Assembly (NCBI GenBank): GCA_963678315.1 | Contig: OY782781.1 | Span: forward strand, 1,568,001-1,632,000 | DNA: 64,000 bases | From: Candidatus Cloacimonadales bacterium | GTDB lineage: Bacteria; Cloacimonadota; Cloacimonadia; Cloacimonadales; JAFGVF01 | Direction: 5' to 3' | In this document: piece by piece, positions 23,059 to 44,943 of the stretch | Layout of the letters: every line of letters starts with the position of its first letter | Position numbering within the stretch: the stretch's first letter is position 1 | Translations under genes and position numbers: made by a program | The notes under the pieces: generated by a model | Databases searched by the model: none | Seen by the model: the letters and a program-made list of their open reading frames with translations, nothing else | Told to the model about the DNA's origin: nothing

Positions 23059-23990
23059 TGAGAAAAATAGCACTTCTAGCTTTCATATTTGCTCTTAGTC
23101 TTTCTGCTTTAACAGCTTCTAGTAAGTATTTGTGGTCCACAGGGAGAACAATTGAATTAGTTGCTAACAAGATAGACTATAAAGACAATATTCTTGCTGT
23201 AGCAAATAATAATGTTGTCTATATATATAAAACTTTTGGTGTATCATCATTTACATTGAAAAGTTCTTATATTCTAGAAGAAGAAGTGCTTGATATTGAA
23301 GTATTATCAACGGGGGATGTTGGGATTGCTATCAACTCAATTTCAACAATATATACTGAAAATGATTCTGTTGATACCGTTGGTCGTGATATCGAAATAG
23401 AAATATTTAATGGCAATGATATAGATCAAGAAGGATCTAATTTATATGTAGCTAATCAGGATAAAGGTCTGACTATTTATAATTTAGGTAATAATGGGGT
23501 AGAGGATATTGTAAGCAATTATAGAAAAGAGTGGGGGCTTAATTCAATTGAACCCCAATGGCCACTTCTATATACTGCGAATAAACATGGAGTTGCTACA
23601 GTAAATTTAAGTAATCTTAAAAAACCTATGCCATTTGGAAATAATTATGATGTGTTTTCTACTTCTAAAGTAGCTTATTGTAATGATTATTTGTTTGCTG
23701 TATCTAGTAGAACCTTGAATATTCTAGACGTATCAATTCCTGGTAAACTGAAAAAATTTACATCAGAGGTCTTTCCTTACAATATTCACGATATCAAAGT
23801 CAAAGATAATGAAGTATTTGTAATTTTGGGAGATGGTGGATTTGTAATTTATCATATTGATGAGAATAAGGAAATTTATCAAACAGATTCTTATGATGAT
23901 GGGACATTTATTGAAGATATTGCCTTTATTGGAGATTATATTCTAGTTGTTAGAAGGAATCAAGATATAAAGATTGTAGGATATAATTAG
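23058..23990 (+). CDS. Secreted beta-propeller protein (LVIVD-repeat-like)
   Basis: Signal peptide; repeats such as LYVANQDKGLTIYN, LNILDVS.P, GDGGFVIY. Confidence 0.6.
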   Translation: MRKIALLAFIFALSLSALTASSKYLWSTGRTIELVANKIDYKDNILAVANNNVVYIYKTFGVSSFTLKSSYILEEEVLDIEVLSTGDVGIAINSISTIYTENDSVDTVGRDIEIEIFNGNDIDQEGSNLYVANQDKGLTIYNLGNNGVEDIVSNYRKEWGLNSIEPQWPLLYTANKHGVATVNLSNLKKPMPFGNNYDVFSTSKVAYCNDYLFAVSSRTLNILDVSIPGKLKKFTSEVFPYNIHDIKVKDNEVFVILGDGGFVIYHIDENKEIYQTDSYDDGTFIEDIAFIGDYILVVRRNQDIKIVGYN

Positions 23991-26755
23991 AATTTTGAAA
24001 CAGGTATAATGAACTCAATCTGATGCCTATCATTAGACCTATTAAATAAAAATGAGTAACGTAGACCTAGTTTTAATTCTATTTCATTAAACAATTTGTA
24101 GTCTAATAATATTTCTGTACCTGCTGAGTTACGCTCTATTTTTGTTTTATTATCATTACTATCCCTGACAGAGTTTGAGTAACATATAAATGGACTAGCA
24201 TATATCCTTTTTAAGTAAACAGTGTCCTTTATTCCTACTTCAGGATAAAAGAGACTAGTATACATCTTAAGTTTAGTATTTACTTGTCTATCAAATTCAA
24301 GATCATCAAAATAACCATAAGCTTTAGTCAGATTATCTGAAAATCTATATTCATTTTGGCTGTCTTCATTAACAAAGCTATTTTCTAAAAGAAAAGAATA
24401 GTTTTCCCAGAAGCTATCAAAAGAAAAATCTGCTTGAATTGTTATTTGTTCTGCATCAATTTCATCAACAGATTTCTTGTAGTTAATTGAATAGTATTGA
24501 CCTAAAGGAGAATAAAAATCATTTTGAGCTTTAGGAGCTAGTGATGTAAGGGATAAGGAAGTGTTTATATAATTAAAGGTTAAATCTGCTCTTTCTGTAA
24601 AATTAAATATACTTTTACTTCTGTATCTATCAAGATGATTAAGCCCTAATGAATAATTCATGTTACCATTATTGCTTCCTTCAATGAAATTAAGCGGTAA
24701 TATTAAACTAACACCATACATTATTTCTTCGTGATTATCATTTGAATGCCTTGAGTTAGAATGAGAAATTTCAGTTCGTATATTTGGATAAAAGGAAGAG
24801 AAAAGGCTTGATAATGATGTTTTCATGCCTAAGTTCTTAAAACTAAGTTTAGAAGTTGCGTTGATTGTAAAAGTCTTCATCGGGTTCCTAGAATAAGTAT
24901 AAATATTAGCTTCTCTCTGGTCATATTGCAATCTTAACGCCCTAAATCTTATTAGCTCGAACATTGGGTCTAACTGCTTTTCTCCTTTATAATATTTCTT
25001 AAGATTATCAATAATTATTGAACAATCATCTACAAGCATTTCATTTTTGTTCCACATTGTAGGAGTGAAGCTATTTTTATCTAATTGGATTATTCTTAGT
25101 TCCTTACCCCAATATTTGTTAGCAGTGTAGATTAAAGTATCTCCTTTTATATATGGATAGCAGACACTATTATCTGAATAAAAGGTTTGATAAGCAAGAC
25201 TATCATTCTGAGATAAATAGCAAACATTGTAAATATCATTAATTGGGTAAGTAAAGTAAATTGCCGAATCTGAAACATGTAAATCTTTTATAGGATCTGT
25301 TGAAAATGGAGTTAATACTTGTTCTTTTTTGGTGCTGATGTTATATTTAACAATTGCAGTCTGACCAAGAAAATTCTCAGCAATATAAACAATTGTATAT
25401 TGATCCAGCCAAGTAATCTTATTGAAACTCCAACAATTATTATTAGGAATATAGTATATTCTATCGCCAGTATCAAAATCTAAAATTGTAATGTTTTGAC
25501 TATATTTATCAGATATTCTTATTGTTGCAATTTTACTTTTATCTGGGGACATTTTTGGCTTAACAAAAATTTCATTAGTTTTAATGATTCTTTTCTTTCT
25601 GTTCTGTAAGTTATAAAATACTAATGAGCTATTTTCAATATTATTTAAATTTAGCTCTTTATGCTTTTCATTCCACAAAATATAAGGTTCATTAACATCA
25701 ATTTCAATATCATTCATGTACCCAATGGAGACAACTTTTTCAATTGAATCTTCACTTATTTGGATAACTTGTTTTGGGTGTTTATAGCTTTCTTTAACAG
25801 CAATAATATTACCGTTATTTAGTAAAAACGCTTGGGTTATTGAATTGTTGTATTGCTGATTTTGTGCGTAATAAGGGGAGCTTAGGTCAGGAGGTAGTAG
25901 ATTAATATCATGTAAGAATTGTCTCTTATAAAAGTTGTGAAAATCGTTATAAAATTCTTCAATTGTTATATCAGTATTTTTCTTAAAAGACCTAGAATAA
26001 GGATAGAAAAAGTATTCAAAATACTCTATATCGTTAACAATCGCTTGCCATCTTTCAGGTCCGTATCTTTGCAAAAAGTAGTTGCTTGCAAGAATTCCAA
26101 AATCTGTTAAGTTAGGAGTTTTATTTCTATATGAGCCATTTACTAAATTCTGATAAGGGATATATTTGTTGTAGAGTGCAAAATCTCTATAAGAATCATA
26201 AGTCTGAAGTTCAAGTCTTCTTCTGAAACTTTCTAATATAGCTTCATTGTATTCCTCTTTAGAAGAATGAAACCATTCTGGATAAATTATACTTTTTGTT
26301 GATTTTAAAGACTTACCTCTAGATATGTTATAAGTTAATTGTAAGACACTTTTCCTTAATTCTCTAGAATTAATTGTTAGTGGTATATCTACTAAATTTG
26401 ATATATTACTTAGCTCAATTTCATCATATGTAACTTGAGTTCGTTTATTCTTGTAAATGTAAGAATCAATAAATTTATTGAAATTAAAGTCTAGATTGTT
26501 AGCCACTGATTCTTTATCAATAACAATGTAGCCATCTTTTAAATAATCGTGTAAAGACTCGGTGTTGTTGTTAAGGTAGTCTATAAATGTAGCAATTAAC
26601 TTAGCTCTATACTCAAATTTCTCTTCATAAATTATTTTTGTATCGCCCACATCTATGTAGTACCAATTTGGAATTTCGAAGAATGAGTTTGCTTCTAATA
26701 AAGATAAGGCAATGGATAATATTGTCGATATAAGTAAGGATTTAGATTTAATCAT
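23987..26755 (-). CDS. Outer-membrane protein: degenerate peptidase-like N-domain, TolB-like propeller, C-terminal beta-barrel
   Basis: Signal peptide; P.WF motif; PKMSPDKSKIA WD40/PD40-like repeat; alternating beta-strands; C-terminal Phe. Confidence 0.6.
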   Translation of the reverse strand: MIKSKSLLISTILSIALSLLEANSFFEIPNWYYIDVGDTKIIYEEKFEYRAKLIATFIDYLNNNTESLHDYLKDGYIVIDKESVANNLDFNFNKFIDSYIYKNKRTQVTYDEIELSNISNLVDIPLTINSRELRKSVLQLTYNISRGKSLKSTKSIIYPEWFHSSKEEYNEAILESFRRRLELQTYDSYRDFALYNKYIPYQNLVNGSYRNKTPNLTDFGILASNYFLQRYGPERWQAIVNDIEYFEYFFYPYSRSFKKNTDITIEEFYNDFHNFYKRQFLHDINLLPPDLSSPYYAQNQQYNNSITQAFLLNNGNIIAVKESYKHPKQVIQISEDSIEKVVSIGYMNDIEIDVNEPYILWNEKHKELNLNNIENSSLVFYNLQNRKKRIIKTNEIFVKPKMSPDKSKIATIRISDKYSQNITILDFDTGDRIYYIPNNNCWSFNKITWLDQYTIVYIAENFLGQTAIVKYNISTKKEQVLTPFSTDPIKDLHVSDSAIYFTYPINDIYNVCYLSQNDSLAYQTFYSDNSVCYPYIKGDTLIYTANKYWGKELRIIQLDKNSFTPTMWNKNEMLVDDCSIIIDNLKKYYKGEKQLDPMFELIRFRALRLQYDQREANIYTYSRNPMKTFTINATSKLSFKNLGMKTSLSSLFSSFYPNIRTEISHSNSRHSNDNHEEIMYGVSLILPLNFIEGSNNGNMNYSLGLNHLDRYRSKSIFNFTERADLTFNYINTSLSLTSLAPKAQNDFYSPLGQYYSINYKKSVDEIDAEQITIQADFSFDSFWENYSFLLENSFVNEDSQNEYRFSDNLTKAYGYFDDLEFDRQVNTKLKMYTSLFYPEVGIKDTVYLKRIYASPFICYSNSVRDSNDNKTKIERNSAGTEILLDYKLFNEIELKLGLRYSFLFNRSNDRHQIEFIIPVSKF

Positions 26756-26779
26756 AGCATCAACAATAAGGTCAAATTA

Positions 26780-27514
26780 CTATTTCAAAGCAGTATAAAC
26801 GCTTAACATAAATGATAGAGTTGCTAAAACTGCAGTATAAATGTGCCAAGGAAATTCTCTAGGGGGAGGAATAATAATTGTATCGCCAGCATTGATAATA
26901 AGCTGATCTTCAAACTCACTAATTTCTTCAGAAAACCAGATATCCTCAATATTTACATTGAAGACCTCTCCATCAACTCTAATGATTCTTATAATTGATA
27001 CATCACGGATATTTGTTATTCCTTTTGCTAGTGCAAGGGCGTCAGTAAGTTTCATTGATTCATATATTTGAAAGTCTCCAGGTTGATTCACATAACCTAA
27101 AATACTTATTTTATGTCCATAAATTTTATCTACATAGATAGTTACAACTGGTATCGTTACATAGGGTAAGAGCTTTTTCTCTATTATTTCCCTTAGCTTT
27201 GAAACAGTCATGTTTTCTACCCTAATATTACCAAGTAGGGGATATTCTATTCCTCCATCAGGTAGAACTTTGATACCCTTTTTGGTAAATTCACCGTGCT
27301 CCATTACTATTATAGAAATCTGATCACCTTTTTGTAGTCTATATTGCTCATCTAAAGATACAGAAAGAGAATCATTTGGTTCCAAATCAGTAGATGTAAG
27401 ATTCTTAATAATATCATCTTTAGTTATCATAGGTATTGAATCATCGTAAATATCCTGTCCACTAAGTGAAAACAAGAATCCAAGCATTACAATTAAGATA
27501 AAAAGCTTTTTCAT
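26780..27514 (-). CDS. wza: Polysaccharide export protein (OPX/Wza family, short form)
   Basis: YRLQKGDQISI...VLPDGGIEYPLLG poly-export motif; SLBB ILGYVNQPG...LTDALALAKG; GDTIIIP; C-terminal hydrophobic helix. Confidence 0.88.
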   Translation of the reverse strand: MKKLFILIVMLGFLFSLSGQDIYDDSIPMITKDDIIKNLTSTDLEPNDSLSVSLDEQYRLQKGDQISIIVMEHGEFTKKGIKVLPDGGIEYPLLGNIRVENMTVSKLREIIEKKLLPYVTIPVVTIYVDKIYGHKISILGYVNQPGDFQIYESMKLTDALALAKGITNIRDVSIIRIIRVDGEVFNVNIEDIWFSEEISEFEDQLIINAGDTIIIPPPREFPWHIYTAVLATLSFMLSVYTALK

Positions 27515-28618
27515 TTAATCTCCAACTCTCTTTAAATCTTCTTTAAACTGTTTATAGGTATCAAGGTTAGTATCCCAGTATTTCTTTCCATTTATTCTTC
27601 TTACTACTCCAGGTAAAGTATAGAACTCAATCTTGGCATTCTTCATTGAAGATACTCTTCTTGCTACAGCCATAGCAAATTTAGGGTCGATATTAGTATC
27701 TGCTTCACTTAGAATTTGAGGTCCTACCTTTGATGAAATAAAGAAATCCATAGACTTAAACTTTTTATACAATTCTCTCATAAAGTCCTTTTGTCGTTTT
27801 ATTCTATTGTGTGAACCTGTAGTTACATCAATCTTTCGCATATCTTCTGAAATGTATGTAATATATCTCCAGGAAGTATAGCCATCAATAATGTGTATAC
27901 CTGAGTTAATTCTATACTGTTTAGCAAATTCCTTAGGTATATCTACCTTAATACCCTGCAAATGATCGATAAACTTCATCCAAGATTTCCTGTCATGGGC
28001 GAAATAGTGATTAATATCTAGTGAAGTTAGAGCTTCTACAGATTTTACTAGAGAGCTTGGTCCTCCAATTAGATACATCTCATATAAGGTTCTTAGTTCT
28101 TTGTTAGAATTTGGAATTATGGTATACCAAGGAATGTGTCCTACCTTGATTAACTCCAATTCTGGATAAACAGTTATTAGAATAAAGGTTCTAGGCAATC
28201 CAGCATATACTATGTTAACTTCTTCAATATCTTGCTTGTAGTTCTTTAGTTTTACTTCTGGTTCAGAATAAACTTTAACAGGTTTAGGTTCTTTTTTTGA
28301 TAATGTAGAAGAATAAGGAATACAGTAAGTTTCCCAAGGAGTCAAAAGTTGGTTTATATCAACTTTTTCAAGATTAGCATTTGGAGTAATTCCTTTGGCT
28401 TTTTGAATTAGTTCATAAAGAGTTTCACCTTCAGTTATTGGGTAAACTCCTCTATCAACTACTGCTCCTCCAATTCCGGCATAGATAGTCTTATCTATTA
28501 CAGTGCAAGTTCTGAGAGACAGCAATATAATAATAACTATAGCCACACAAAGAATTATAGAAATAGCAGCACCAATACGTTTACCTTTATCATAGGAATA
28601 GTGATTATTTTTAGTCAT
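27515..28618 (-). CDS. TM-SLBB-LCP (LytR/CpsA/Psr) fusion protein with degenerate LCP motifs
   Basis: IGGAVVDRGVY...LIQKAKG...NL ComEA-like SLBB; LVKSVEALTSLDINHY, FIDHLQGIKVD, RIKRQ, TNI and TLPG of the LCP fold. Confidence 0.75.
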   Translation of the reverse strand: MTKNNHYSYDKGKRIGAAISIILCVAIVIIILLSLRTCTVIDKTIYAGIGGAVVDRGVYPITEGETLYELIQKAKGITPNANLEKVDINQLLTPWETYCIPYSSTLSKKEPKPVKVYSEPEVKLKNYKQDIEEVNIVYAGLPRTFILITVYPELELIKVGHIPWYTIIPNSNKELRTLYEMYLIGGPSSLVKSVEALTSLDINHYFAHDRKSWMKFIDHLQGIKVDIPKEFAKQYRINSGIHIIDGYTSWRYITYISEDMRKIDVTTGSHNRIKRQKDFMRELYKKFKSMDFFISSKVGPQILSEADTNIDPKFAMAVARRVSSMKNAKIEFYTLPGVVRRINGKKYWDTNLDTYKQFKEDLKRVGD

Positions 28619-31388
28619 AATCTATATCATCAGAAAGACCGAACACTTTCTTAATTTTGTTTAAGTACTTCTCAAACTTTGTTGGCTTATGATTTTTACT
28701 GTATGTTGATTCAAATTCATCATCGATTTCTTTATCTCTTTGGGATGACAAACCAACAAACTCGTCTTCATCGTCGTCATCAATATCATTTTGGAAGGTA
28801 AAGTTTTTTAGATAGTTTACTAACTTCATAAACCAGTCCTTACTGACAAAGTGACTTTCTTTTTTCTTTCCACTTTTCTTATGCTTTTTCTTTACTTTTT
28901 CATTATCTTTATAATAGTAATAATATTCGTAACCGTAGTAGTAGTCGTTGTAAGCTGTGTCGAAAATATCATTAGTTACTGAATTTGCAATAAATCCAGC
29001 ATTTCTTATACCTATTACATCAAGCTTTTTCGCCATTCTTCTAATGTTCTTAGTTGTAGTTAGATTCATTTTGGTTGCAGTCAGAACACAATCAAGATGA
29101 CTAAGTAAAATTGATGTTTCAGGGAAATACATAGACGCTGGTGTATCAATTATTACAATATCATAATCTTCTTTTAACTTTTCAAGATATTGAACAAACT
29201 TAGGACTATGGTATAGTTGATTAACACTTGGTGGTTTCTTCCCTGAAGGTAGAACATTCAAGTTTTGAATCCTAGTCTCAACAATAGCTTCTTCAAGATT
29301 TACTTGCTCGGATAGTACTTCTGAGAAACCAACGAGATGAGACATTTTATGGTACCTAGAAACTCTAGGATTATAAAAATCTGCATCAACGAGAAGAACT
29401 CTCTTATTATGCTTGGCTGTGGCTATTGCAAGGAAGTTAGTAATTGTAGATTTACCTTCACCTTTTATTGAGCTAATCACACCAATGATATTTTTTTCTC
29501 TATTTAGAATTAAGTACTTGAAGTTTAATGAAATTTCTTCGAAAACTTTAAGCAGGACATCTTTTTTATCTTCAATTTCTGCCTGATCTTTAGAAGTAAA
29601 AACATTTAAATCTAGTGGAGAGAAGTTAAGTTGTGGTATTGTTCCAATTACAGGAATATTCGGGAAATTATTAATTAACTCTTTTACAGTACGTATTTTG
29701 TTATCTAACATGTTAAGAAGAAGAGCAATACCATAACCAAGACCCAATCCTAGAATTAAACCTATAAGAAGGTTCATCTTTAATTTATTATTAGATGGTT
29801 TTGTTGGTATTTCAGCTTCTTGTAATTGAACTATTCTACTTGCTTCAATATTTTCGCTTAACCTTGTTTGATTTAGTTGAGCTTGAAGATTCAACCTGAT
29901 AACATCAAACGATTTTTTTAAACTCTGTAACTTATTTAACTTAGAAGTATCTTTATCATTTAACTCCATTGAAGCTATAACTTTATCAAGAGCTTTAATC
30001 TTTTGTGTTAATGAAATCTCAGTTGTCTGAGCTTTAATTAAGTCACTAAGTAATTGCTGTTTTAAAGGATTTTGACCAATACTCTTAAATTGTACATTTT
30101 TTTCAGCTCCTTCTTGAATAAGGTGCTCTAAATTAGTAATATTTGTTTTTATTCCTAGAACCTTTGGATGGTTTTCACCATATTTTGTTAAGGCACGTGC
30201 TAGGTCTACTTCAAGATTTAATAATCTCATTTTGAGAGGCTCACTATAAGTTGTCTCCGAAATATAAGAATTATCTTCTTCTTTTATCTTTTTCTCAAGC
30301 TCTGCAATATTGGCTTGTTGAGATTCAAGTTCAACTTTATAAGTTGTTCTCATATCTTTAAATGAATTTAATCTTTTTAGGTTAACTTCAACATTATTAT
30401 CATTGAAATTTTTACCAGCATATAACTTCTTTATTTCAACATCTAAAGAATCAATATCCTTATTCTTTTTGTCTAATTGATCCTCAAGATACATAATTGA
30501 CTTAGCATAACTATCAGTTCTAATAGCTAAATCATATTCATTTAATGCAATAAAATAATTATTTGCAATAGATGCTGCTATATTGGGATTAATATGGTTA
30601 ACATTGATTGTAAGAATATTCTCGACATCGCGTTCAGATGTGCAAGTCATGGAAGCTTTTGCTTGTCCTGGAGTAATAAAGTTGTTCATTAGCTTTGATA
30701 CTCTAGATGAAAGTTCTGACGAATTTATTATTTGAATCCAAGTTTTTAAATCCATCTCTTCTTTGAAATATTGTTTCTGATTTATCAAGTTCATCTCAAT
30801 TAAATTATCTTTAATCAAGATCTGTGTAGAAGAAGTGTATTTTGGAACTTGATACATAGAAAATAAATAAGCTACCAAAATAGCTGTAATTGTGCTCAAT
30901 AAAATCAATAGCTTGTAACGATAAGCTATCTCCAAGTAGTCCATAATATTAACTTCATCTTCAAAGATATTCTTTTTCTGTGCTACATCATTATATTCAT
31001 AACTTGTCTCATTATGATTAGTTAGGTTCTCTGGACTTTTAGTGTTGTGTAGAGTCTTACCAGAGTTATTAATCTCTTTTATTACTTCTTTTTGAGGTAA
31101 CTCAACAGTTGGATTCTTCCCTGGTTTATGATCTATATCTTCTGTATTGCTAGCTTTTGCCCTTTCAGAAGGCGATATTGTTTCTTCTTGCTCTTTTATA
31201 CCTTTAAGTTTTTGGTCATTTTCTTTAAGGTTAGAGTAAGGGGTGCCTATGGAAGCTGTTTCACTAGAATCAACAAAAATAGATCTCTTTTCAGAAATGT
31301 TATTGGCTGACTCTTTATTTAAATCAATTTCAACATTGCTTTTTCTTTTTTTTCTTAGGTCTGATATTGATAATCTTTTTTGTGTCAT
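28611..31388 (-). CDS. wzc: Wzc-type polysaccharide co-polymerase / BY tyrosine autokinase
   Basis: Two TMs flanking coiled coils with YGENHPKV; Walker A GEGKST, A' VDAD, B IDTP; Tyr cluster YNDYYYGYEYYYYY. Confidence 0.92.
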   Translation of the reverse strand: MTQKRLSISDLRKKRKSNVEIDLNKESANNISEKRSIFVDSSETASIGTPYSNLKENDQKLKGIKEQEETISPSERAKASNTEDIDHKPGKNPTVELPQKEVIKEINNSGKTLHNTKSPENLTNHNETSYEYNDVAQKKNIFEDEVNIMDYLEIAYRYKLLILLSTITAILVAYLFSMYQVPKYTSSTQILIKDNLIEMNLINQKQYFKEEMDLKTWIQIINSSELSSRVSKLMNNFITPGQAKASMTCTSERDVENILTINVNHINPNIAASIANNYFIALNEYDLAIRTDSYAKSIMYLEDQLDKKNKDIDSLDVEIKKLYAGKNFNDNNVEVNLKRLNSFKDMRTTYKVELESQQANIAELEKKIKEEDNSYISETTYSEPLKMRLLNLEVDLARALTKYGENHPKVLGIKTNITNLEHLIQEGAEKNVQFKSIGQNPLKQQLLSDLIKAQTTEISLTQKIKALDKVIASMELNDKDTSKLNKLQSLKKSFDVIRLNLQAQLNQTRLSENIEASRIVQLQEAEIPTKPSNNKLKMNLLIGLILGLGLGYGIALLLNMLDNKIRTVKELINNFPNIPVIGTIPQLNFSPLDLNVFTSKDQAEIEDKKDVLLKVFEEISLNFKYLILNREKNIIGVISSIKGEGKSTITNFLAIATAKHNKRVLLVDADFYNPRVSRYHKMSHLVGFSEVLSEQVNLEEAIVETRIQNLNVLPSGKKPPSVNQLYHSPKFVQYLEKLKEDYDIVIIDTPASMYFPETSILLSHLDCVLTATKMNLTTTKNIRRMAKKLDVIGIRNAGFIANSVTNDIFDTAYNDYYYGYEYYYYYKDNEKVKKKHKKSGKKKESHFVSKDWFMKLVNYLKNFTFQNDIDDDDEDEFVGLSSQRDKEIDDEFESTYSKNHKPTKFEKYLNKIKKVFGLSDDIDYD

Positions 31389-32919: not shown

Positions 32920-33649
32920 AAATCTTTTCTAGTCCTGCTTTGATTAGTTCCGAATTCTTCTTGTTTAGCATACCTCTAATGCCTTCGATAATTATCTTTC
33001 TATTAATGAAAGCTTTTTCTGCTTGTGAAGATAACTTTCCTGATAATGGTCTAAAGAACACAACAGACAATACTAAACCATAAAGAGTTGTAACCAATGC
33101 TAAACTCATTGCTTTTGGAACAATTGTAGGATCTTCAAAAGAACTAAGCATAGAAATCAGACCTATAACAGTACCAATCATCCCGAACATTGGTGATATA
33201 TTACTAGCTAAACCAAATACTTTGGAAGCTTTTTTATCTTTATTAAAAAGTGAAAGACTTTCTTTTTCTAACAAAAGGGCAATTTCTGAAGATGGAATAT
33301 TATCAGTTATTAAATTTAAACCAGATCGTAAGAATTTTAATTGTTGCACTTCATCAAAATCAATGATTTCTTTGAATGTTAATGATCTAGAATCTTTGCT
33401 AATGCTAACGATAATATCAACAAGATCATCATGAGATATATTATCTTCTTTATTTATTGTAAATAGCCTTTTGAATGAGAAGAAAAAATCGCTAATTGAG
33501 TAAGTGCTAATTATCGTTACTAAAGTTCCCCCAAGAGTAACAACAACAGCTGTTATATCAACAAAATCCTGCAAGTCTCCCTTGTTATATACTGCAAACA
33601 ATACAATAAAAAGTGATATAAGAATACCTATAAAAGTAGAAATTTTCAT
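32912..33649 (-). CDS. motA: Stator subunit MotA/PomA-like
   Basis: GGT in TM2; FLRSGLNLITD; PMFGMIGTVIGLI; AMSLALVTTLYG; PL..KL; IIIEG. Confidence 0.92.
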   Translation of the reverse strand: MKISTFIGILISLFIVLFAVYNKGDLQDFVDITAVVVTLGGTLVTIISTYSISDFFFSFKRLFTINKEDNISHDDLVDIIVSISKDSRSLTFKEIIDFDEVQQLKFLRSGLNLITDNIPSSEIALLLEKESLSLFNKDKKASKVFGLASNISPMFGMIGTVIGLISMLSSFEDPTIVPKAMSLALVTTLYGLVLSVVFFRPLSGKLSSQAEKAFINRKIIIEGIRGMLNKKNSELIKAGLEKIYA

Positions 33650-33658
33650 TTAATGTCC

Positions 33659-35044
33659 TTAATTTAAATTTAGTATGTATCTAATCTGATTTACTGATTG
33701 ATTGATAATAAGATTCTTTGTCTCTTCATTAAAATCGTCCAGCATTTCTATGTCCTCTTTCATAATCATAATAGCTCTTTCTGAGAGCTGAGAATAGAAC
33801 TTGTTCCTAATGTTATCAGGCACACACTTTAAGAATCTTACCATGTCTAAATGAGTGAACTCACTGTTAATTTGTTCCAGCTGTACATTCTTTAACTTAA
33901 GAATATCATCAATTAAGAATATTTTCTTTGAAAGCTGTTGACTAAAGTCACTATCAAAGAACTGGATTGACTTAAATATTTCGTTAGCTACGTCTGGAGA
34001 AGAATTATTAATAAACTTAGCCATTGTATTAAGTTTATTAATTTTATAGGGATCTTTTTCCATAGCTTCTAAATATTTCTGATACATATTTACAACTAGA
34101 ATTTTCATATCTAATTTAAGCACATTGTCTAAGTTTATGAGGGCTTTTAACACAGCGTTTTTATCACCAGTGTAATGTCTAAAGAAACTATCAAATTTAT
34201 CAGCATCAAGTTGACTTAAAATGATAGCGATCTCATTAGGATTCTCATCTTTTAAAATATTTATGAAGTTATCATTAGATAGCTCATTTAAAAAGGCAAA
34301 ACTAGTTGGACTGTCTTCCTCATCATCTTTTAGAAGTTGAACTTTTACAGGTCTATTGCCCAAGTTATTTGTATGGTTATTATTAGACTCAGAAGAAGAA
34401 CTTTGTGATAATGGAATGGATTGCATTCCGCTAACCTGATCAATATTAGTAACTTTAACTTTTCTCATTGATTTAGCAATGATTCTGAATCCACTTTTTA
34501 GATTATTAACAATTACGAAGAAAGCTAAAGCGAGTAAGGCAATAATTGAAATATTCTTTACGTTAAAGAATGAGTTGCTTTCAGACTTTATATTAAGATC
34601 TTTCTCAATATTAATTACATCACCTTCAAGCTCATTAATATAAGCAATATTTCTTACAATTTCAGAAATTTCTTCAATAACAGAATCATCAGTGTCTTGT
34701 GCAACACGAACTGTTACTCTTTTGCCAGTAACATCTGTTGGAGATAAATCAGTAAGATCAAGAGTTGGTATTTTGTCTTCAGTCTTTGCGACTGGTAGTC
34801 CAGGTAAGCTAGTTTGCTTATCTAGTGTCATTTGATCGCTATTGGGATCATAAAAGTTATAACTTAAATCAATATCAACATAGACTATACAATCTTTTAT
34901 AATTGGTTTCAAAGATGCGTTAATTCTTTCTGATAGTTCGTTTTCTAATCTTAGCTCAGCTAAAGAATTAGAGCCAATTCCAAATAAAAGTCCTGAAAAG
35001 CAAAGAATAAAAATGATAAGTAAAAATCTAATAACAATCTTCAT
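33659..35044 (-). CDS. FliF-like (ring-building domain plus TM) / FliG (middle and C-terminal) fusion protein
   Basis: FliF_C-like RVTVRV...IEEISEIVRNIAYINELEGDVINI; TM ISIIALLALAFFVIV; FliG_M-like FAFL...ENPNEIAIILSQL; FliG_C-like KKIFLIDDILKL...LKC...LSERAIMIMKEDIE. Confidence 0.8.
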   Translation of the reverse strand: MKIVIRFLLIIFILCFSGLLFGIGSNSLAELRLENELSERINASLKPIIKDCIVYVDIDLSYNFYDPNSDQMTLDKQTSLPGLPVAKTEDKIPTLDLTDLSPTDVTGKRVTVRVAQDTDDSVIEEISEIVRNIAYINELEGDVINIEKDLNIKSESNSFFNVKNISIIALLALAFFVIVNNLKSGFRIIAKSMRKVKVTNIDQVSGMQSIPLSQSSSSESNNNHTNNLGNRPVKVQLLKDDEEDSPTSFAFLNELSNDNFINILKDENPNEIAIILSQLDADKFDSFFRHYTGDKNAVLKALINLDNVLKLDMKILVVNMYQKYLEAMEKDPYKINKLNTMAKFINNSSPDVANEIFKSIQFFDSDFSQQLSKKIFLIDDILKLKNVQLEQINSEFTHLDMVRFLKCVPDNIRNKFYSQLSERAIMIMKEDIEMLDDFNEETKNLIINQSVNQIRYILNLN

Positions 35045-35168
35045 TACTACCTCTTATAGTTAATTGATATCAAGTGTAGTTTTTAGGCAAGAAAAAAATC
35101 AGTTTTTTTTTTGTTTGACTAAAATACCCAAAGTGCAAATATTAATTATCAAACTACGGAGATATCAG

Positions 35169-38100
35169 ATGAAATGTATTTTTAGTCGAACTACGATAAC
35201 GTTACTATTGATAATATTATTTAACTATTCAAATTTACTCAGTGAAAAAAAATATGATTTTAGTGAATGGAATGGTAATGTAGATATCATTGGAGAGAGT
35301 TCTTTTGATCAGTTTGGAGAAGATCTTGTTCATGGTGATGTGAATGGTGATGGTATAAACGATATTATATGTTCAAGTCCTTCAGCTGATCCTTCAGGTA
35401 GAAACTCTGCAGGTATTGTTTATATTTTTTATGGCGAGACAATTCTAGAACAAGAAACAACTATATCACTTGAAAGCAATAATGCCGATGTTACTATATA
35501 TGGGGCTGTAGCAGGACAAAAATGTGGTTCAAGCTTGGCTTGCGGCACAGTTAATAGTGACCTTTTTGATGATGTAGTAATTGGAGCTCCTTTTGCTAGT
35601 ACTAATGATCTTGAACAAAATGGTCTAGTATACATTATTAATGGTTCGAATAATTTACCAACAATTATAGATTTAGCTTCTGCTACTGGAATTGATAAAA
35701 TTAATGGTAGTACTAGTAATGATTTTTTAGGAAGTGATATCACTGTTGCGAATTTGAATAGCGATAATTTAGATGAAGTTATTATTAGTGCACCCAATGC
35801 AGATTCAGATAATACACAAAACTGTGGTAAGGTATATATCTTATGGTCTAATGAAAGCTACTCACAGAATCTTGATTTAGCTTCTGCTAATAATGTTACA
35901 TATTTTGTTGGTAACCATATCAATGAAAACTTAGGTTATAAGATTGCTTGCGGTAATATTAATAACGACTCTTTCTGTGATTTGTTCATTGGCGCTCCGG
36001 GTTTTGATGATGATAGTCTGTTAAATAATGGAAGGTTATTCCTTATAAAAGGTCGAGGTTTCTTTCCTTTTGGGCAAGTTGATATTACAAATGAAACTTA
36101 TGTAAATGCAACAATTGAAGGAACTAATCAAGCATCTGTAATTGGAAAAGCTTTTACAGTAGATGACTTCAATAATGATGGGAATGGAGATTTACTTCTC
36201 ACAGATCAAAGTAGTCAATTAGATTCAAACTTAATATACCTAATTTTAGGTAATAATAGCCTAACAGGTACCATTCTAGCAAACAGTGAAAACTCTAATT
36301 CATTAATTTCAGGAGAAGGTTTAGACAATACATTTGGTCAGTATCTTTACTCTGGAGATGTAAATAATGATTCTATATATGATATGATTATTTCCTCTCC
36401 TGAAGCAGAAACTACTAATGGTAATTCCTCTGGAATAGTCCATGTTATTTATGGTAATAGCCTTATTAATACTGCTTATGATGTTAATCTAGGTGATAGT
36501 GATGAAGTTTATCTTGGAAGCACAACACAGTCATTAACAGGTACTTCTATTTCTCTATGTGATTTTAATAATGATTCTAAAAATGATATTTGGATTGGTT
36601 CTCCAGGTAGTGGAAATAACAATGGTGAGATTAATAGTGTTTATGGTGGTATCCCATGGCTATATAATAGAAATCCTAATGAAGAAGCTACAGATGTAGA
36701 TATTGATAGTCCTGTATCTTTCTCATTGGCAGATGATAATCAGATTAATATTTCTTCTATCTCAGTTGTTATAGCTGGTACAGAATACAACTCTAATAGC
36801 AATAACTTCTCTTATAGTGGTTCGGAAGAAAATTACAGAATTACTGTAGCTCCTGAAGATTTTTACGGATATAACCAGATAATTGACGTATCAGTCAATG
36901 CTGAAGATGATGATGGCTGGCAGATACCTGAATCAAATTATAGATTTTTTACTAGAGAAGATACTGATCCTCCATTTACTGATTTATGGATTCCAGCTCC
37001 AGATGCAGTTGGCGTTGCTGTAGATACCAACATTGAATTCCATATTTATGATTTAGGGGATGGGGTCGACTTATCATCAATCACTGTTAATATTCAAGGT
37101 GAAAACTATTATTCAGGTCATCCTAATTTCTCAGCTCTGGGAGAGGCAAATGATTACACAATAGTAATTAATCCCCCTCAAAACTTTAGTTTTGGGGAAT
37201 TAGTTAATGTTACTATTGATGCTACAGATTTAGCTGAAGTCCCTAATGCCATGACTTCTTTCGAATACTCATTTACTTGCGGACAAGATAATTCTGCTCC
37301 TTCAATAATCTTAATAGAACCAGCTTATAATGAAGAAGTATCTAGAGTTAATCCTGTAATAATAGAGGTTAGAGATGATGAAACTGAGTTAAATCTTTCT
37401 TCAGCTGAATTAAAGCTTGATGATGTAAGTATATTAGCTTCATCACAGATAACCAATATAACAAATGGATATAGATTTTATTATTCAGCACTTGATAACG
37501 GTATACATTCATTCGGAAATCATGAAATTGAATTTTATATTGAAGATAGCTCTTCCAATGCAGTTGATACTCTATCAGTTTTTTCTGTGATACCAGATAA
37601 TGAAGCTCCTTTTACTCAGAATCACTATCCTGATAAGTTTTCTACCGAGAACGCAACAAATACCAGTTTTATGGTGGAAATATTTGATTTTCTTAGTGGA
37701 GTAGATATTAATACTGTCTCAATTAGATTGAATAGCCAAGAGATTATGAGTTCTCCATTCACAACTATTACAGATGTTGCTGATGGTTATAGAATTCTTT
37801 ACAGTCCTGATGAAAGGTTTCAAGGAGAAGTTTCAGTAGAAATTGATGCAGGTGATCTTGATATACCAGCCAACAACATGCCAACAGAAGTCTATACTTT
37901 TGAATGTACAAGTGATACTGAAGCCCCTTACATAGAAAATGTTGATCCTGAAGTCGGCGAGATTAACGTTAGTCCTGATACTAATGTACAATTTAGAATA
38001 AAAGATGATAAAACTGGGGTTGATATTTCAACCTTATCAGTTAAAGTTAATAATATTGTTGTAACTGATAATGTAACGACAGCTCTAGTTACATCTGGTT

Positions 38101-39833
38101 TTGATGTGCTTTATATTCCATCTGAAATATTTGATTTCAATGAATGGGTTGAAGTAGAAATTGCATGTTATGACAAAGCTCTTGTTCCTAATTTGTTTAC
38201 AACTGATTATAGCTTTAGAATAACTCCAGATCTTATTCCACCTGAACTAGTAAATCTATCCCCCGAAGCCAATGAAACAGGAGTTCCTATCTCTGAAAAT
38301 ATATATTTTGAAATTACTGATAATGGACTTGGTGTTGATATCAACAGCTTATCAATGAGAGTAAATGGGGTTCAAGTTAATCCAGATTATGAAGAAATTA
38401 ATGATACAAATAATTATGCTGTAACCTATGAACACCAAGATTTTGATTATTCAGAAGAAGTGACTGTTGTAGTATCTGTGTCAGATCTTGCAGCGTCTCC
38501 GAATAGTTTAATTAATTATAACTATATGTTCCAAACAGTAGATGATGATAATGTTGAACCATTTTTTACTGCCTTTAATCCAACACCTGATGCTATAGAG
38601 GTGCCTGTTGAGACTTCAATCTCTATGGAAATCCTAGATGCTGATTCAGGCATAGATGAAACTTCAATTATATTTAAAATTAATAATGAAACAATTGAAA
38701 GTTACCAGCTAACACCGATTGATAGTGATGAGGGAACAGGTTTTCAACTTCTTTATGAACCTAATGAAGAGTTTAATTACAATGAGACTGTTCATGTTCA
38801 GATTTATGCAATGGATTCTTCTAGTAATAACAATAGTAATAGTATGAATTATTCTTTTACTACTTTAGTTGATGACGATCCTCCATATCTTAGCTTTTCA
38901 TATCCTGAATCTGGAGGTAATGGTTATGCTAATTCTTTAGTGTATCTTAATTTTAATGATGACTTATCTGGGGTAGATAAGACTAGTTTTAATTTGAAAA
39001 TTAATGATTCTTTTGTGACAACTTATACAGATTCTTTAGATGGAAATGCTTTTGAGGTTTGGTACGAAACAGAAGATAACTACACTTCAGATATTGTTGA
39101 AGTAGAATATTACATATCTGACAAGGTGGGTAATACTTTAAACGAATCCTTTGAATTTAACATTATAGAGGATATATATCCTCCATATTTTGTGCAAATT
39201 GGATCCTTTGCAGATAATCAAGATGAAATAGTAAATAAACTAAAAATAGCTATTCTTGATAAGGGGGTTGGCATTAATAAAGAGAGTATTCAGTTCGAAG
39301 TTAATAATCAAAGTGTAGAAAACTATTCGCTAGATGAACATATTTATGATTCAAACCCTGACTCATTAGGTTATGTGCTGACTTATAATGTTAATGAAAA
39401 TAATTATGATGGTCAAAAACTTAAAGTTAATATTTATGCAGAAGATGAAAACAATCCTATTCCTCTTTCTGGTGAAGCTCAACTAAGTTTCTATATATGG
39501 CGTGAGCTAAATTCAGATAAAGTAGAGATTGTTCCAAATATTTTGAGCCTAAATAATGATGGATATAACGATGAATGCAGAATAATCATTCCATCCAATA
39601 AAAATGCTGTGTGTAAAATATTCACAATGGAAGGTAAAGAGATCAAAGACTTGGATATTATGCCTTATAGCTATGAAGATAGTCCTGATTTATCAAAAGG
39701 TGTGCAAGATTACCAAGTTGCCATCTGGGATGGTAGAAACAAAGACAATAAGATTGTCAATGCCGGAATTTACTTTTGCCAAGTCGAAGTAAATGGTAAG
39801 AAACACTTAAACACAATAACAATAGCAAAGTAG
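35169..39833 (+). CDS. Large surface adhesin: 7 FG-GAP blades, about 9 Ig-like repeats, T9SS type-B (CHU_C)/FlgD-like C-terminal domain
   Basis: GDVNGDGINDI-type Ca-binding loops x7; D..(A/P)P linkers and D..GVD..S about every 105 aa; VPNILSLNNDGYND...WDG...GIYF...ITIAK. Start ATG 35169 behind GGAG. Confidence 0.85.
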   Translation: MKCIFSRTTITLLLIILFNYSNLLSEKKYDFSEWNGNVDIIGESSFDQFGEDLVHGDVNGDGINDIICSSPSADPSGRNSAGIVYIFYGETILEQETTISLESNNADVTIYGAVAGQKCGSSLACGTVNSDLFDDVVIGAPFASTNDLEQNGLVYIINGSNNLPTIIDLASATGIDKINGSTSNDFLGSDITVANLNSDNLDEVIISAPNADSDNTQNCGKVYILWSNESYSQNLDLASANNVTYFVGNHINENLGYKIACGNINNDSFCDLFIGAPGFDDDSLLNNGRLFLIKGRGFFPFGQVDITNETYVNATIEGTNQASVIGKAFTVDDFNNDGNGDLLLTDQSSQLDSNLIYLILGNNSLTGTILANSENSNSLISGEGLDNTFGQYLYSGDVNNDSIYDMIISSPEAETTNGNSSGIVHVIYGNSLINTAYDVNLGDSDEVYLGSTTQSLTGTSISLCDFNNDSKNDIWIGSPGSGNNNGEINSVYGGIPWLYNRNPNEEATDVDIDSPVSFSLADDNQINISSISVVIAGTEYNSNSNNFSYSGSEENYRITVAPEDFYGYNQIIDVSVNAEDDDGWQIPESNYRFFTREDTDPPFTDLWIPAPDAVGVAVDTNIEFHIYDLGDGVDLSSITVNIQGENYYSGHPNFSALGEANDYTIVINPPQNFSFGELVNVTIDATDLAEVPNAMTSFEYSFTCGQDNSAPSIILIEPAYNEEVSRVNPVIIEVRDDETELNLSSAELKLDDVSILASSQITNITNGYRFYYSALDNGIHSFGNHEIEFYIEDSSSNAVDTLSVFSVIPDNEAPFTQNHYPDKFSTENATNTSFMVEIFDFLSGVDINTVSIRLNSQEIMSSPFTTITDVADGYRILYSPDERFQGEVSVEIDAGDLDIPANNMPTEVYTFECTSDTEAPYIENVDPEVGEINVSPDTNVQFRIKDDKTGVDISTLSVKVNNIVVTDNVTTALVTSGFDVLYIPSEIFDFNEWVEVEIACYDKALVPNLFTTDYSFRITPDLIPPELVNLSPEANETGVPISENIYFEITDNGLGVDINSLSMRVNGVQVNPDYEEINDTNNYAVTYEHQDFDYSEEVTVVVSVSDLAASPNSLINYNYMFQTVDDDNVEPFFTAFNPTPDAIEVPVETSISMEILDADSGIDETSIIFKINNETIESYQLTPIDSDEGTGFQLLYEPNEEFNYNETVHVQIYAMDSSSNNNSNSMNYSFTTLVDDDPPYLSFSYPESGGNGYANSLVYLNFNDDLSGVDKTSFNLKINDSFVTTYTDSLDGNAFEVWYETEDNYTSDIVEVEYYISDKVGNTLNESFEFNIIEDIYPPYFVQIGSFADNQDEIVNKLKIAILDKGVGINKESIQFEVNNQSVENYSLDEHIYDSNPDSLGYVLTYNVNENNYDGQKLKVNIYAEDENNPIPLSGEAQLSFYIWRELNSDKVEIVPNILSLNNDGYNDECRIIIPSNKNAVCKIFTMEGKEIKDLDIMPYSYEDSPDLSKGVQDYQVAIWDGRNKDNKIVNAGIYFCQVEVNGKKHLNTITIAK

Positions 39834-39839
39834 GTTAAC

Positions 39840-41315
39840 ATGAAAAATACAAATATAAAAATTACAGTCTTTCTTGTTTTATTACTTTGCACATTAGATT
39901 TATATTCTTTCAATTTCTTCAAGGGTGGACTTAGGAATTATAGTTTAGCTGGAACAGGTGTAGCCTCAACTAATGATGTATCTGCTAGTGGCTACAATCC
40001 TTCTTTGCTTAATTTGAATAGAGATTTTTCCATACTAACAGACTCAAGAGTCTATTTCTATGATCTTGAGAATGATGATTTAAGCTTTAATTATTTTGCT
40101 TTAGGAGTACCTCTCGGACGTTATGGCTCTTTAGCTTTATCAGGGGATATTTTCAATGCTAATCTTTATGATGAAAATAGATATGGATTACATTGGGGAT
40201 ACTCATTAACAGATGATTTTGGTATAGGTACCAGCATCAATTATTACTCTATATCTTATGGAGGAAATGAGTATACCCAGAATGACCCATTCTTTGTTGA
40301 TAATAATACTGATAAGGCAGCTCTTGATCTAGATTTTGGATTATATTATAATCTTAGTCAGCAATGGAGACTAGGACTCTCATCGAAAAATATACTTCAA
40401 TCTGATCTAGCGATTGATAGTAGTAATGAAGAACAGTTAAATAGAGAAATCTTAATTGGTAATAATTATCAATATAGAAAATTTAATTTTATGCTTGATC
40501 TTGGTCTTATTCAGAATGCTGTAACAGAAGAAAACGAACTAAATTATGCTTTAGCTAGTGAATATAAATTATACGATAATCTTGCTATTAGAACTGGTAT
40601 TAACAATAATGATCTAACTTTTGGGTTTGGCTTTGAGATTATCGACAAAGAATATGTTTCTTCTTACAGATCTTCATATAACTCAAAAAAAATGATTGAG
40701 ACTAAAAGTGTTGTTTTCTCTGTAGATTATGCTTTCTCTTATCCTTTGTTGAGTGATCTTGCTATTCCATACGGAAATCACTTTGTAGGTTTAAGCTTTA
40801 AATTTGGTAACTCACAATCTAGTGAAGATGAACTTAAAAAACATGTTTCTCCTGTAGTGGAAGAGGCAATCGTTGAGATTCCTGTCAAAGCATCTTTAGA
40901 TAATTCTAAACCGCATGTCTTAGTTGATACAGTTTATGTAGATAAGATTATTAGAGATACTATTGTTGTAGTTGATACAATTGAGGTTATTACAGGAGTA
41001 CCTGAGAGTGAGTATCAGAAGAAAATTCAGGAGCTTAATGCTGCATACACTAAAATCAAAACTTATAAAACTAATAATCAAGCTCTGATACACATAACTA
41101 ATGCAACGAAATACTATTATAGCAGTGATTTTGAGAAGGCTATTGATGAGTGTAATAAAGCTATAAGGCTTGCTCCAGATATGGCACTTGCTTATATAAA
41201 ACTCGGTTCGATATATTATAGGCAAGGAAAAGCAGACTTAGCAATGAAGAATTGGAAAATTGCTAAAAGACTAGACCCTAAAAACCCTGAACTTGAAGGT
41301 CTTTTTGATGATTAA
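39840..41315 (+). CDS. PorV/PorP-SprF-like outer-membrane barrel with C-terminal stalk and TPR domain
   Basis: RNYSLAGTGVASTNDVSASGYNPSLL N-terminal motif; DLDFGL, IRTG, VDYAF strands; TPR AIDECNKAIRLAPD..LAYIKLG. Confidence 0.7.
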   Translation: MKNTNIKITVFLVLLLCTLDLYSFNFFKGGLRNYSLAGTGVASTNDVSASGYNPSLLNLNRDFSILTDSRVYFYDLENDDLSFNYFALGVPLGRYGSLALSGDIFNANLYDENRYGLHWGYSLTDDFGIGTSINYYSISYGGNEYTQNDPFFVDNNTDKAALDLDFGLYYNLSQQWRLGLSSKNILQSDLAIDSSNEEQLNREILIGNNYQYRKFNFMLDLGLIQNAVTEENELNYALASEYKLYDNLAIRTGINNNDLTFGFGFEIIDKEYVSSYRSSYNSKKMIETKSVVFSVDYAFSYPLLSDLAIPYGNHFVGLSFKFGNSQSSEDELKKHVSPVVEEAIVEIPVKASLDNSKPHVLVDTVYVDKIIRDTIVVVDTIEVITGVPESEYQKKIQELNAAYTKIKTYKTNNQALIHITNATKYYYSSDFEKAIDECNKAIRLAPDMALAYIKLGSIYYRQGKADLAMKNWKIAKRLDPKNPELEGLFDD

Positions 41316-41363
41316 TAGAGATGAAGTATTAGCTTTATCTACAATATAGTATTGGTAATAGAA

Positions 41364-44929: not shown

Positions 44930-44943
44930 AATAACTCCCTTAA

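Follow-up and report, generated by a model that had tools for sequence, protein, structure and literature searches.

A FliF-FliG fusion with a MotAB-type stator forms a putative non-flagellar motor module encoded with a surface adhesin and a barrel protein in Cloacimonadota

A stretch of 64,000 nucleotides from the genome of a Candidatus Cloacimonadales bacterium (contig OY782781.1, positions 1,568,001 to 1,632,000; hereafter the window) carries a gene for a fusion of the flagellar ring protein FliF with the rotor protein FliG, followed by genes for a MotA- and a MotB-type stator protein and lying back to back with genes for a large surface adhesin and a barrel protein. The conserved unit is these five genes (rotor, MotA, MotB, adhesin and barrel), which we found in three gene orders and in at least two phyla. 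We conclude that they encode a self-contained, non-flagellar rotor-stator module that is functionally tied to the adhesin and barrel pair, a reading to which we assign a probability of roughly 0.85. The more specific proposal, that the motor moves the barrel-anchored adhesin on the cell surface, is tentative, and we place it a little below even odds. The rotor and stator genes (genes 1 to 3) are followed in the window by five genes of the polysaccharide-export type (genes 4 to 8), which are an addition in the window's own family.

Gene 1 indeed encodes a fusion of the third ring-building motif (RBM3) of FliF with the middle and C-terminal domains of FliG (FliG MC), as its original annotation had proposed, and both halves of the protein document this. 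The rotor protein begins with a signal or transmembrane (TM) segment, followed by a periplasmic domain (residues ~25-153), a TM helix (~162-195), a disordered linker and the FliG middle and C domains (~245-460). Pfam recognizes FliG_C (2.6e-10) and, weakly, FliG_M in the C-terminal half, and a profile made from 11 orthologues matches the structure of FliG MC in the PDB (1lkv) with an E-value of 1.3e-19. Foldseek searches with the rotor model returned both FliG MC and the FliF RBM3/S-ring. The periplasmic domain (residues 25-153) superimposes on Salmonella FliF 233-438 with a VIA-align Z of 13.5 and a root-mean-square deviation of 2.1-2.3 Å over 95-96 residues, and the Z values against other ring-building motifs are lower (SpoIIIAG 9.3, EscJ 8.9, PrgK 8.8). 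A local hhalign comparison of rotor family residues 28-154 with FliF 232-417, in which no structure model is involved and the FliF side is an alignment of seven FliF sequences, gave a probability of 96.2 and an E-value of 2.6e-9. Among remote relatives of the rotor, three have weak matches to YscJ_FliF_C, and a protein of 552 amino acids (aa; P0109) scores 7e-17. FliF RBM3 builds a 33-34-mer S-ring, according to the titles of the matched structure entries.

The rotor protein also lacks defined parts of its two flagellar counterparts. RBM1 and RBM2 of FliF are missing (YscJ_FliF has no match anywhere in the genome), FliG_N has no Pfam or NCBIfam match in gene 1, and the FliF C-terminal peptide is missing as well. 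Since FliG_N and this peptide are gone and the remaining domains are fused, the non-covalent joint between FliF and FliG in flagella has been replaced by a single chain. The torque helix is preserved, with Arg R423 invariant in 31/31 rotor relatives and the E430 and D431 positions acidic in all 31; these residues correspond to R281, D288 and D289 of E. coli FliG. The motif at E267-P269, presumably the FliM-binding EHPQ motif, is degenerate in the rotor family (19 of the 31 proteins have E267 and 15 have P269), which fits the lack of FliM in the genome.

The profile search recovered other natural FliG variants in addition to the rotor family. These comprise FliM-FliG fusions (one with DUF4116 repeats), FliN-FliG fusions, double FliG_C proteins, full-length FliF-FliG fusions of ~780 aa, and a 552-aa Desulfomonilia protein in which only the end of FliF RBM3 precedes FliG_M and FliG_C (variants among P0053, P0082, P0101, P0124, P0057, P0058, P0075, P0087, P0134 and P0109).

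Genes 2 and 3 are a dedicated stator of the PomA/MotA-MotB type. The gene 2 product matches Pfam MotA_ExbB (1.9e-21), and its top NCBIfam matches, full length and under the equivalog cut-offs, are MotP (2e-40) and PomA (7e-39), with MotA also represented. Against PDB sequences, all 10 matches at E<=0.01 are flagellar stators, headed by Vibrio PomA (4e-32, residues 1-240). Across the module stator A proteins, P153 and T160 are kept in 20/20, and the position of PomA R88 is Arg or Lys in 18 of the 20. The gene 3 product matches Pfam OmpA (3.7e-17) and MotB_plug (5e-06), its top NCBIfam models are MotD, MotB and MotS, again under equivalog cut-offs, and its PDB matches are MotB, PomB and MotS. 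Its TM Asp, D51, aligns with the Asp of Clostridium sporogenes MotB and is kept in 17/18 relatives. The earlier call of a flagellar-type stator, complete with channel Asp and peptidoglycan (PG)-binding domain, is borne out by these matches. The three other MotA_ExbB genes of the genome each adjoin an ExbD/TolR-type gene. In a MotA tree rooted on ExbB/TolQ, the module stators group with flagellar stators and far from ExbB/TolQ; Cloacimonadota flagellar stators appear there as sister to the module stators of the Electryoneota type described below, long branches meet at the root, and we draw no direction of descent from this tree. We also considered a Zorya reading and rejected it, given that gene 2 has no ZorA match and gene 3 gives generic ZorB (MotB-like) matches only.

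No flagellum accompanies this motor. The genome is a single contig of 2,988,751 bp, 97.9% complete, in which FliG_C matches once, at gene 1. FHIPEP (FlhA), FliP, FliM, YscJ_FliF, Flg_bb_rod, Flagellin_N and MCPsignal have no match genome-wide, FliN, CheA and CheW not being among the families searched; the flagellar family searches were positive in 4 of 14 genomes, which serve as controls. The lack of flagellar genes that the original prediction had noted for the window extends, for the searched families, to the whole genome, and no flagellar gene set that might have borrowed this motor lies elsewhere on the chromosome. Cloacimonadota are listed among the phyla with high flagellar gene loss in the accessible part of one study (PMC13277936), and the corresponding part of another (PMC8542988) says nothing on their motility.

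INDEPENDENCE of the module from flagella is apparent in two flagellated relatives. Besides the five-gene module, genomes G118 and G119 encode FlhA (E ~1e-261), a FliG with three domains and another full-length stator, which is of the same kind as in other flagellated Cloacimonadota. In a quick FliG-domain tree, which is unrooted, gave composition warnings and is used here only for clade separation, the Cloacimonadota modules (14 rows) and the Electryoneota-type modules (7 rows) each form starred clades, and the flagellar FliG of Cloacimonadota falls inside the canonical FliG cluster, apart from both. Because two flagellated relatives carry the module beside their own FliG and stator, we regard it as a separate machine, and the coexistence together with the separate clades argues that it is neither a recent copy of a local flagellar gene nor a remnant. 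The idea that the locus is the decaying remnant of a lost flagellar locus, or that the FliG-like part is a generic helical domain of the MgtE_N type, draws some plausibility from the flagellated lineages within Cloacimonadota, which make loss conceivable, and from weak MgtE_N matches of the FliG middle domain. However, it is close to refuted: the genes are intact and full length in ~40 of 232 genomes, with identities of 25-50%, the torque residues stay invariant, the five genes keep together in three orders and two phyla, G118 and G119 have the module in addition to a complete flagellar FliG, FlhA and a stator, and the fusion is built to a defined plan from which precisely FliF RBM1/2 and FliG_N are missing. 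As a separate observation, the three-domain fliG of G119 is directly followed by a 168-aa open reading frame (ORF; L050:5958-6464) with a partial FliG_C and then a partial FliG_M, which may be a fragmentary duplicate.

Within the window's own family, the arrangement is strongly kept. The relatives of the window locus are Candidatus Cloacimonadales metagenome-assembled genomes, and in the seven closest loci the motor genes, the ATPase, LytR-CpsA-Psr (LCP) and Wza genes of the polysaccharide set, and the divergent adhesin and barrel genes are present in 7/7, at 41-75% identity. Tblastn detected Wzc in 5/7, and ORF clustering showed it in L006; gene 8 is present in 6/7, being missing from L011 and also from L029, a further locus inside the same family. 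The synteny of the block of eight plus two genes, on which the original prediction hinged, therefore holds in this family, in part only for Wzc and gene 8. The adhesin and barrel genes are divergent from the motor in all seven close loci and in L029; in other loci where they adjoin the motor genes, they are on the same strand.

Across 232 Cloacimonadota genomes, matches spanning both the FliF-like and the FliG-like part are those ~40 genomes with intact rotor genes. They are found in family f1 (8 of 11 genomes, and the window genome), in f6 (three genomes) and in f15 and f17 (two genomes), and in none of the 98 genomes of f3; 34 of the 62 genomes of f12 have a match of some kind, mostly full-span. 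Matches to the FliG part only, in ORFs of ~350 aa, mark the flagellated families f2, f5, f6, f8-f10 and f13. We compared sixteen further loci and set aside L029, which belongs to the window's family and is window-like without gene 8, leaving 15 from other Cloacimonadota families. Ten of these 15 have all five genes (adhesin, barrel, rotor, MotA and MotB) on one strand, and the neighbors of the module in other families are housekeeping genes (XdhC, MobA, CTP synthase) that depend on the lineage.

The module also extends beyond the phylum. Word-index searches were sparse, with 14 relatives for gene 1 and three for gene 8, such that an exhaustive profile search was needed. This gave 37 clusters below 1e-30, plus a remoter group of ~500-aa proteins with the same architecture, one member of which is from Candidatus Electryonea clarkiae of the phylum Electryoneota. 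A metagenome scan yielded 11 loci, from which the three long ones (L039-L041, including an Electryonea clarkiae contig) were compared; L042-L043 are contigs of 2-2.7 kb, and L044-L049 are weak matches to query residues 141-234 only. The order rotor-MotA-MotB-adhesin-barrel is found in 3/3 of the long loci, with an adhesin of ~1550 aa carrying FG-GAP, Big_5 and an over-cut-off CHU_C, and a barrel-TPR protein with PorP_SprF over its cut-off; upstream of the module are CoaE and efflux genes. A deltaproteobacterial locus (L013) was dropped from the comparison as an ordinary fliF-fliG-fliH-fliI operon. In one genus of f12, a 300-aa MscS-like channel gene directly follows MotB (L017:6975-7880, L024:12088-12990, L025:7499-8404, L027:6664-7569).

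While the adhesin and barrel are conserved partners of the motor, its linkage to exopolysaccharide (EPS) genes is lineage-specific. EPS genes lie next to the motor in one of the 15 other-family loci (L020, with LCP and Wza upstream of the rotor gene) and in none of the three outside the phylum, and only the window's own family has loci in which gene 4 comes after MotB. The expectation that the motor is linked to adhesin genes in relatives is borne out by this comparison; a general link to Wzc, Wza, LCP and ExeA, which had been put on the same footing, does not hold. For the same reason, polymer secretion becomes the weaker and adhesin handling or surface motility the stronger of the functions first envisaged. 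We consider it very unlikely that the motor energizes polysaccharide export or polymer deposition via Wzc, Wza, LCP and the propeller-barrel protein. This possibility is suggested by the packing of motor and five EPS-type genes with overlaps of 8, 1, 1 and 8 nt, kept in the close loci, and by the LCP and Wza genes at the rotor gene of another family, and in Myxococcus an Agl-type motor helps spread the spore-coat polymer exported by Exo. In addition to the absence of EPS genes beside the motor in 14/15 and 3/3 loci, the possibility has to contend with the loss of gene 8 within the family (L011, L029), and Wzc/Wza systems elsewhere need no such motor.

The adhesin and the barrel protein both have putative features of a type IX secretion system (T9SS). 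The adhesin matches Pfam FG-GAP (4e-30), Big_5 (1.9e-09) and CHU_C, a T9SS type-B-like C-terminal domain (CTD), the last at 4.5e-04 and 20.7 bits against a cut-off of 27; the full-length orthologue in L040 exceeds that cut-off with 32 bits, and none of the NCBIfam CTD models matched the window adhesin. The barrel protein has a barrel (residues ~22-330), a periplasmic linker and a C-terminal TPR region (~405-491; Pfam TPR families). It matches NCBIfam PorV_fam with 1.8e-11 and 44 bits against a cut-off of 90, and among its orthologues that of L040 reaches 24.1 bits for PorP_SprF against a cut-off of 22.3 and that of L024 gives a weak PorV match. Type-B CTD cargo pairs with PorP-like anchors in published work (PMC9143113), and the adhesin and barrel of the module resemble this known pairing. 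The genome has 12 matches to the PorV/PorQ family, four of them over cut-off, which is unusually many PorV-like barrels for 3 Mb; the barrel-TPR protein is a divergent one.

A T9SS translocon is encoded in the same cell. SprA_N is found, over cut-off (8.8e-27), in a 2118-aa ORF of the genome (C1:133373-139711), and in 205 of the 232 Cloacimonadota genomes, including 89 of the 98 in family f3. Because f3 has SprA and no rotor gene, the module is not a general T9SS engine. The GldL and GldM models (TIGR03517, TIGR03513, PF12081) have no match in the window genome, and PF12081 (GldM_1st) is over cut-off in 0 of the 232, both searches having been made without a T9SS-positive control genome; either the T9SS motor of the phylum is too divergent to detect, or it has been replaced by something else. 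In Flavobacterium, GldLM drives T9SS secretion as well as the motion of the SprB adhesin, according to PMC8986121.

This context raises the alternative of a dedicated secretion or assembly motor, resembling GldLM/PorLM, that would energize export through SprA and the anchoring of one adhesin, with no later adhesin movement. The near-universal SprA, the T9SS-type CTD of the adhesin and its PorV/PorP-like neighbor fit such a role, the lack of GldM_1st matches makes a different energizer conceivable, and the dual output of GldLM offers a precedent for the secretory half. Nonetheless, we consider this alternative unlikely: T9SS in f3 works without the module, the GldM search lacks the positive control that would establish absence, and the module is tied to one cargo and barrel pair, with SprA 1.4 Mb away.

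Another alternative follows from the genes beyond the barrel. Kinase homologs flank the barrel gene in 6/7 close loci (all but L011), at the place where a response regulator and two hybrid kinases lie in the window, and in L016 and L018 the module has histidine kinases, a dCache kinase and an HDOD protein as neighbors. Judging by adjacency, the response regulator and kinases could possibly regulate the module. They might also read it, if the module were a surface-sensing mechanotransducer in which load on the adhesin is passed via the barrel to the ring and alters stator engagement or ion flow. We think this quite improbable, since no kinase lies beside the module in the f12, f17 and Electryoneota-type loci, and the set of torque residues and the PG-anchored stator suit a force generator and are not obviously required by a sensor.

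We therefore favor the reading of a motor that acts on the adhesin and barrel pair, for which we suggest the following mechanism. The fusion protein would assemble into an inner-membrane ring, and PG-anchored MotA5B2 would harness ion flow to apply torque to the torque helix of FliG_C. On its periplasmic side, the rotating ring would connect to the barrel in which the adhesin is held by its CTD, probably by way of the barrel protein's linker and TPR tail. The adhesin could thus be moved or spun on the surface, with dynamic adhesion or motility akin to gliding as the result. For the window's family, the EPS set may provide a slime or capsule polymer that is co-expressed with the adhesin machine, and would not be the primary load of the motor. 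A complex prediction for rotor residues 24-160 with the barrel linker and TPR region (335-491) scored 0.19 against a mark of 0.32.

Several observations weigh against motor action on the adhesin and barrel. Ring formation, rotation, barrel coupling and output are inferred, and the physical link between rotor and barrel is our extrapolation from gene linkage. The window's adhesin CTD and barrel PorV scores fall short of the curated cut-offs. The motor genes of the window's family are tightly coupled in translation to the EPS genes, and the adhesin genes are divergent. The acidic partner in stator A (the D97 position) is acidic in only 8 of 20 proteins in this alignment. Moreover, five of the 15 other-family loci (L020, L021, L022 with two triplets, L023 and L028) have rotor-MotA-MotB without an adjacent PorV-like gene detectable by BLAST; four of these triplets (two in L022, and those in L023 and L028) are followed by a gene for a TPR/YfiO(BamD)-like lipoprotein instead of barrel and adhesin, and upstream of the L021 triplet lies the gene for another FG-GAP/Ig protein that has a T9SS tail (CTD). 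The extra f12 triplets (L022:9586-18072, a tandem pair; L023:9516-13580; L028:6502-10633) encode a rotor variant of 475-514 aa.

Two bolder readings can also be considered. That the module is a widespread ion-driven rotary organelle of diderms, in which a minimal FliF(RBM3)-FliG ring spins or translocates a barrel-anchored giant adhesin, is doubtful. That it is of ancient origin, as a sister of the flagellar rotor-stator and not a late offshoot of it, seems improbable, although the unrooted FliG tree is compatible with it; were it true, the module would show what the torque core is capable of in the absence of an axial filament and a type III export apparatus.

The layout of the locus is given in Table 1. 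The spacing of the eight minus-strand genes in the ORF list is exactly as first described, with a gap of 9 nt, overlaps of 8, 1, 1 and 8 nt and gaps of 0 and 24 nt, and this tight packing points to their probable co-transcription. The adhesin ORF opens upstream at TTG 35064; however, relatives align only from residue 32-36, and the ATG at 35169 is preceded by GGAG, so we take this ATG as the start and agree with the 124-bp spacing claimed before. A scan of 23500-42500 for consensus promoters and terminators remained at background level (116 promoter-like sites against 104 expected, and 7 terminator-like against 5.7). Four RNA runs yielded 0 reads over 23900-41400, a result that speaks neither for nor against expression of the locus.

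Table 1. Features of the motor locus and its surroundings, in positions of the window.
Feature	Position	Strand	Description
Rotor gene (gene 1)	33659..35044	-	FliF-FliG fusion, 461 aa
motA-type stator gene (gene 2)	32912..33649	-	245 aa; MotA/PomA/MotP type
motB-type stator gene (gene 3)	32227..32919	-	230 aa; TM helix and OmpA-like PG-binding domain
ExeA-like AAA_22 ATPase (gene 4)	31388..32227	-	279 aa
Wzc-type co-polymerase with C-terminal tyrosine autokinase ATPase (gene 5)	28611..31388	-	925 aa
SLBB-LCP (LytR-CpsA-Psr) glycopolymer transferase (gene 6)	27515..28618	-	367 aa
Short Wza-type outer-membrane polysaccharide export (OPX) protein (gene 7)	26780..27514	-	244 aa; Poly_export and one SLBB
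Propeller-barrel envelope protein (gene 8; barrel plausible)	23987..26755	-	922 aa; no family
Divergent spacer, rotor gene / adhesin gene	35045..35168	.	124 bp
Surface adhesin	35169..39833	+	~1554 aa; FG-GAP repeats, Big_5 Ig-like, C-terminal CHU_C
PorV/PorQ/PorP-like barrel with TPR	39840..41315	+	491 aa
Candidate regulators	41812..48180	-	Response regulator 41812-42246; PAS/hybrid histidine kinases 42179-44929, 44944-48180 (NCBIfam)

The gene labels given previously agree with the Pfam and NCBIfam names of the window proteins, also for the polysaccharide set. Gene 4 matches Pfam AAA_22 (1e-13) and the NCBIfam model TIGR03015 for the XrtA/PEP-CTERM-associated ATPase (6e-40; 137 bits against a cut-off of 324), and other PEP-CTERM-specific models in the operon are likewise under cut-off (109 against 231 and 86 against 180 bits). 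Gene 5 has Pfam Wzz, GNVR and AAA_31 and the NCBIfam models eps_fam (1e-31, over cut-off), pepcterm_TyrKin and pepcterm_ChnLen, and gene 6 has Pfam LytR_cpsA_psr (6.7e-16), a weak SLBB_2 and the NCBIfam lytR_cpsA_psr domain. Gene 7 matches Pfam Poly_export (2.2e-18) and SLBB_2 and, all under cut-offs, NCBIfam pepcterm_export, EpsE and EpsY; its recognized domains end near residue 214 of 244, a length that would suit a class-3 OPX protein. An SLBB-LCP and short Wza pair, in a diderm, recurs directly upstream of the rotor gene in another family (L020:480-2249), which hints at a recurrent link of this pair with the motor.

For gene 8, which has no Pfam or NCBIfam family, the label of a propeller-barrel protein stands in its first half. 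The protein has a low-confidence N-terminal domain, a TolB-like beta-propeller (~304-557) and a region of beta-strands (~615-916) ending in Phe. Its AlphaFold2 model has a pLDDT of 54 for the whole chain, with 70-90 in the propeller and 25-70 in the strands at the C-terminus, Foldseek matches TolB (E 1.8e-08), and the Atlas feature score is 0.99 to PD40/TolB-like proteins of ~950-1000 aa. The C-terminal region is probably an outer-membrane barrel, which the predicted strands make plausible.

Convergent with the end of the operon, the plus-strand genes at 19323-23990 include one for a phosphotyrosine phosphatase similar to Cps4B, which probably partners with the Wzc kinase. The other genes of this group encode NAD-dependent epimerase-like and flippase-like/LPG-synthase-TM proteins, a MoxR-type AAA ATPase and a 310-aa protein without a family.

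The system appears to be undescribed and far from any characterized machine. A literature search, in which subscription-only literature was not covered, turned up no publication on a FliF-FliG fusion and MotAB encoded next to an adhesin and a PorV-like barrel, in agreement with the original claim that no characterized system has this gene set. To our knowledge, the FliF-FliG-MotAB torque core has been known so far only within flagella. In the module, this core is reduced to one rotor protein and a stator, and it is kept in cells without the other searched flagellar parts and as a second set in flagellated cells. If the module rotates, it represents a new use of ion-motive force at the bacterial surface and a natural minimal rotor for torque studies, which has no C-ring and joins FliF and FliG in a 1:1 fusion, and it bears on the modular assembly of the flagellar motor. 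If the adhesin is moved as we suggest, the module would provide a new kind of surface motility or active adhesion that depends neither on flagella nor on GldLM. Cloacimonadota are abundant and uncultured in anaerobic digesters and sediments, and their little-understood surface biology is what the module concerns.

Among known polysaccharide systems, the window operon can be compared with Wzx/Wzy-type export that uses a short OPX protein and a separate barrel, as in the EPS, MASC and BPS systems of Myxococcus (10.1101/2022.04.04.486985, PMC9603273 and PMC12819527). The two share a Wzc co-polymerase kinase, a short OPX protein, which at 244 aa is probably too short for the outer-membrane helix of Wza, and a candidate barrel. 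Loci of the XrtA/PEP-CTERM type resemble the operon in the ExeA-like ATPase, for which TIGR03015 is the best model, under its cut-off. Unlike both kinds of loci, the window operon is joined to rotor-stator genes and has an unusual SLBB head on the LCP protein, and in contrast to Wzx/Wzy-type export it includes no glycosyltransferase, Wzx or Wzy gene. We know of no EPS-export locus that is joined to a rotor-stator operon.

Among ion-driven motors, ExbBD, TolQR, ZorAB and AglRQS belong to the same 5:2 motor superfamily as the module stator, but gene 3 has a MotB-type PG-binding domain and not the ExbD fold, and gene 2 has flagellar stators as its only PDB matches. Flagellar stators are separated from "generic" ones in PMC12505986, the available part of which makes no mention of FliG-like partners. 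With the flagellar torque core, the module shares RBM3 and the second TM helix of FliF, FliG_M and the FliG_C torque helix, a four-TM MotA/PomA protein with its Pro and Thr, and MotB with its Asp and OmpA-like domain. It differs in lacking FliF RBM1/2, the FliF C-terminal peptide and FliG_N, and in having one chain instead of two. It differs from the flagellar motor as a whole in that its genome has no matches for FliM, FlhA/FliP, rod/hook, flagellin or methyl-accepting chemotaxis proteins, and in its linkage to a barrel and a giant adhesin. Bacteroidota gliding and T9SS machinery (GldLM, SprB, SprF) likewise combines a member of the 5:2-type stator family with an adhesin bearing a type-B-like CTD and a PorV/PorP barrel, with SprA in the genome, although the CTD and the barrel family are tentative assignments in the module. 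There, however, the motor is GldL/GldM and not MotAB on a FliG ring, the two being homologous only via the stator superfamily, while the module is self-contained in five genes, has a TPR tail on its barrel and is patchy in a phylum where the translocon is near-universal. By analogy, the module most plausibly works like the Bacteroidota gliding/T9SS machinery; its nearest relative by descent is the flagellar motor core and its nearest counterpart by likely function is the Bacteroidota gliding/T9SS apparatus.

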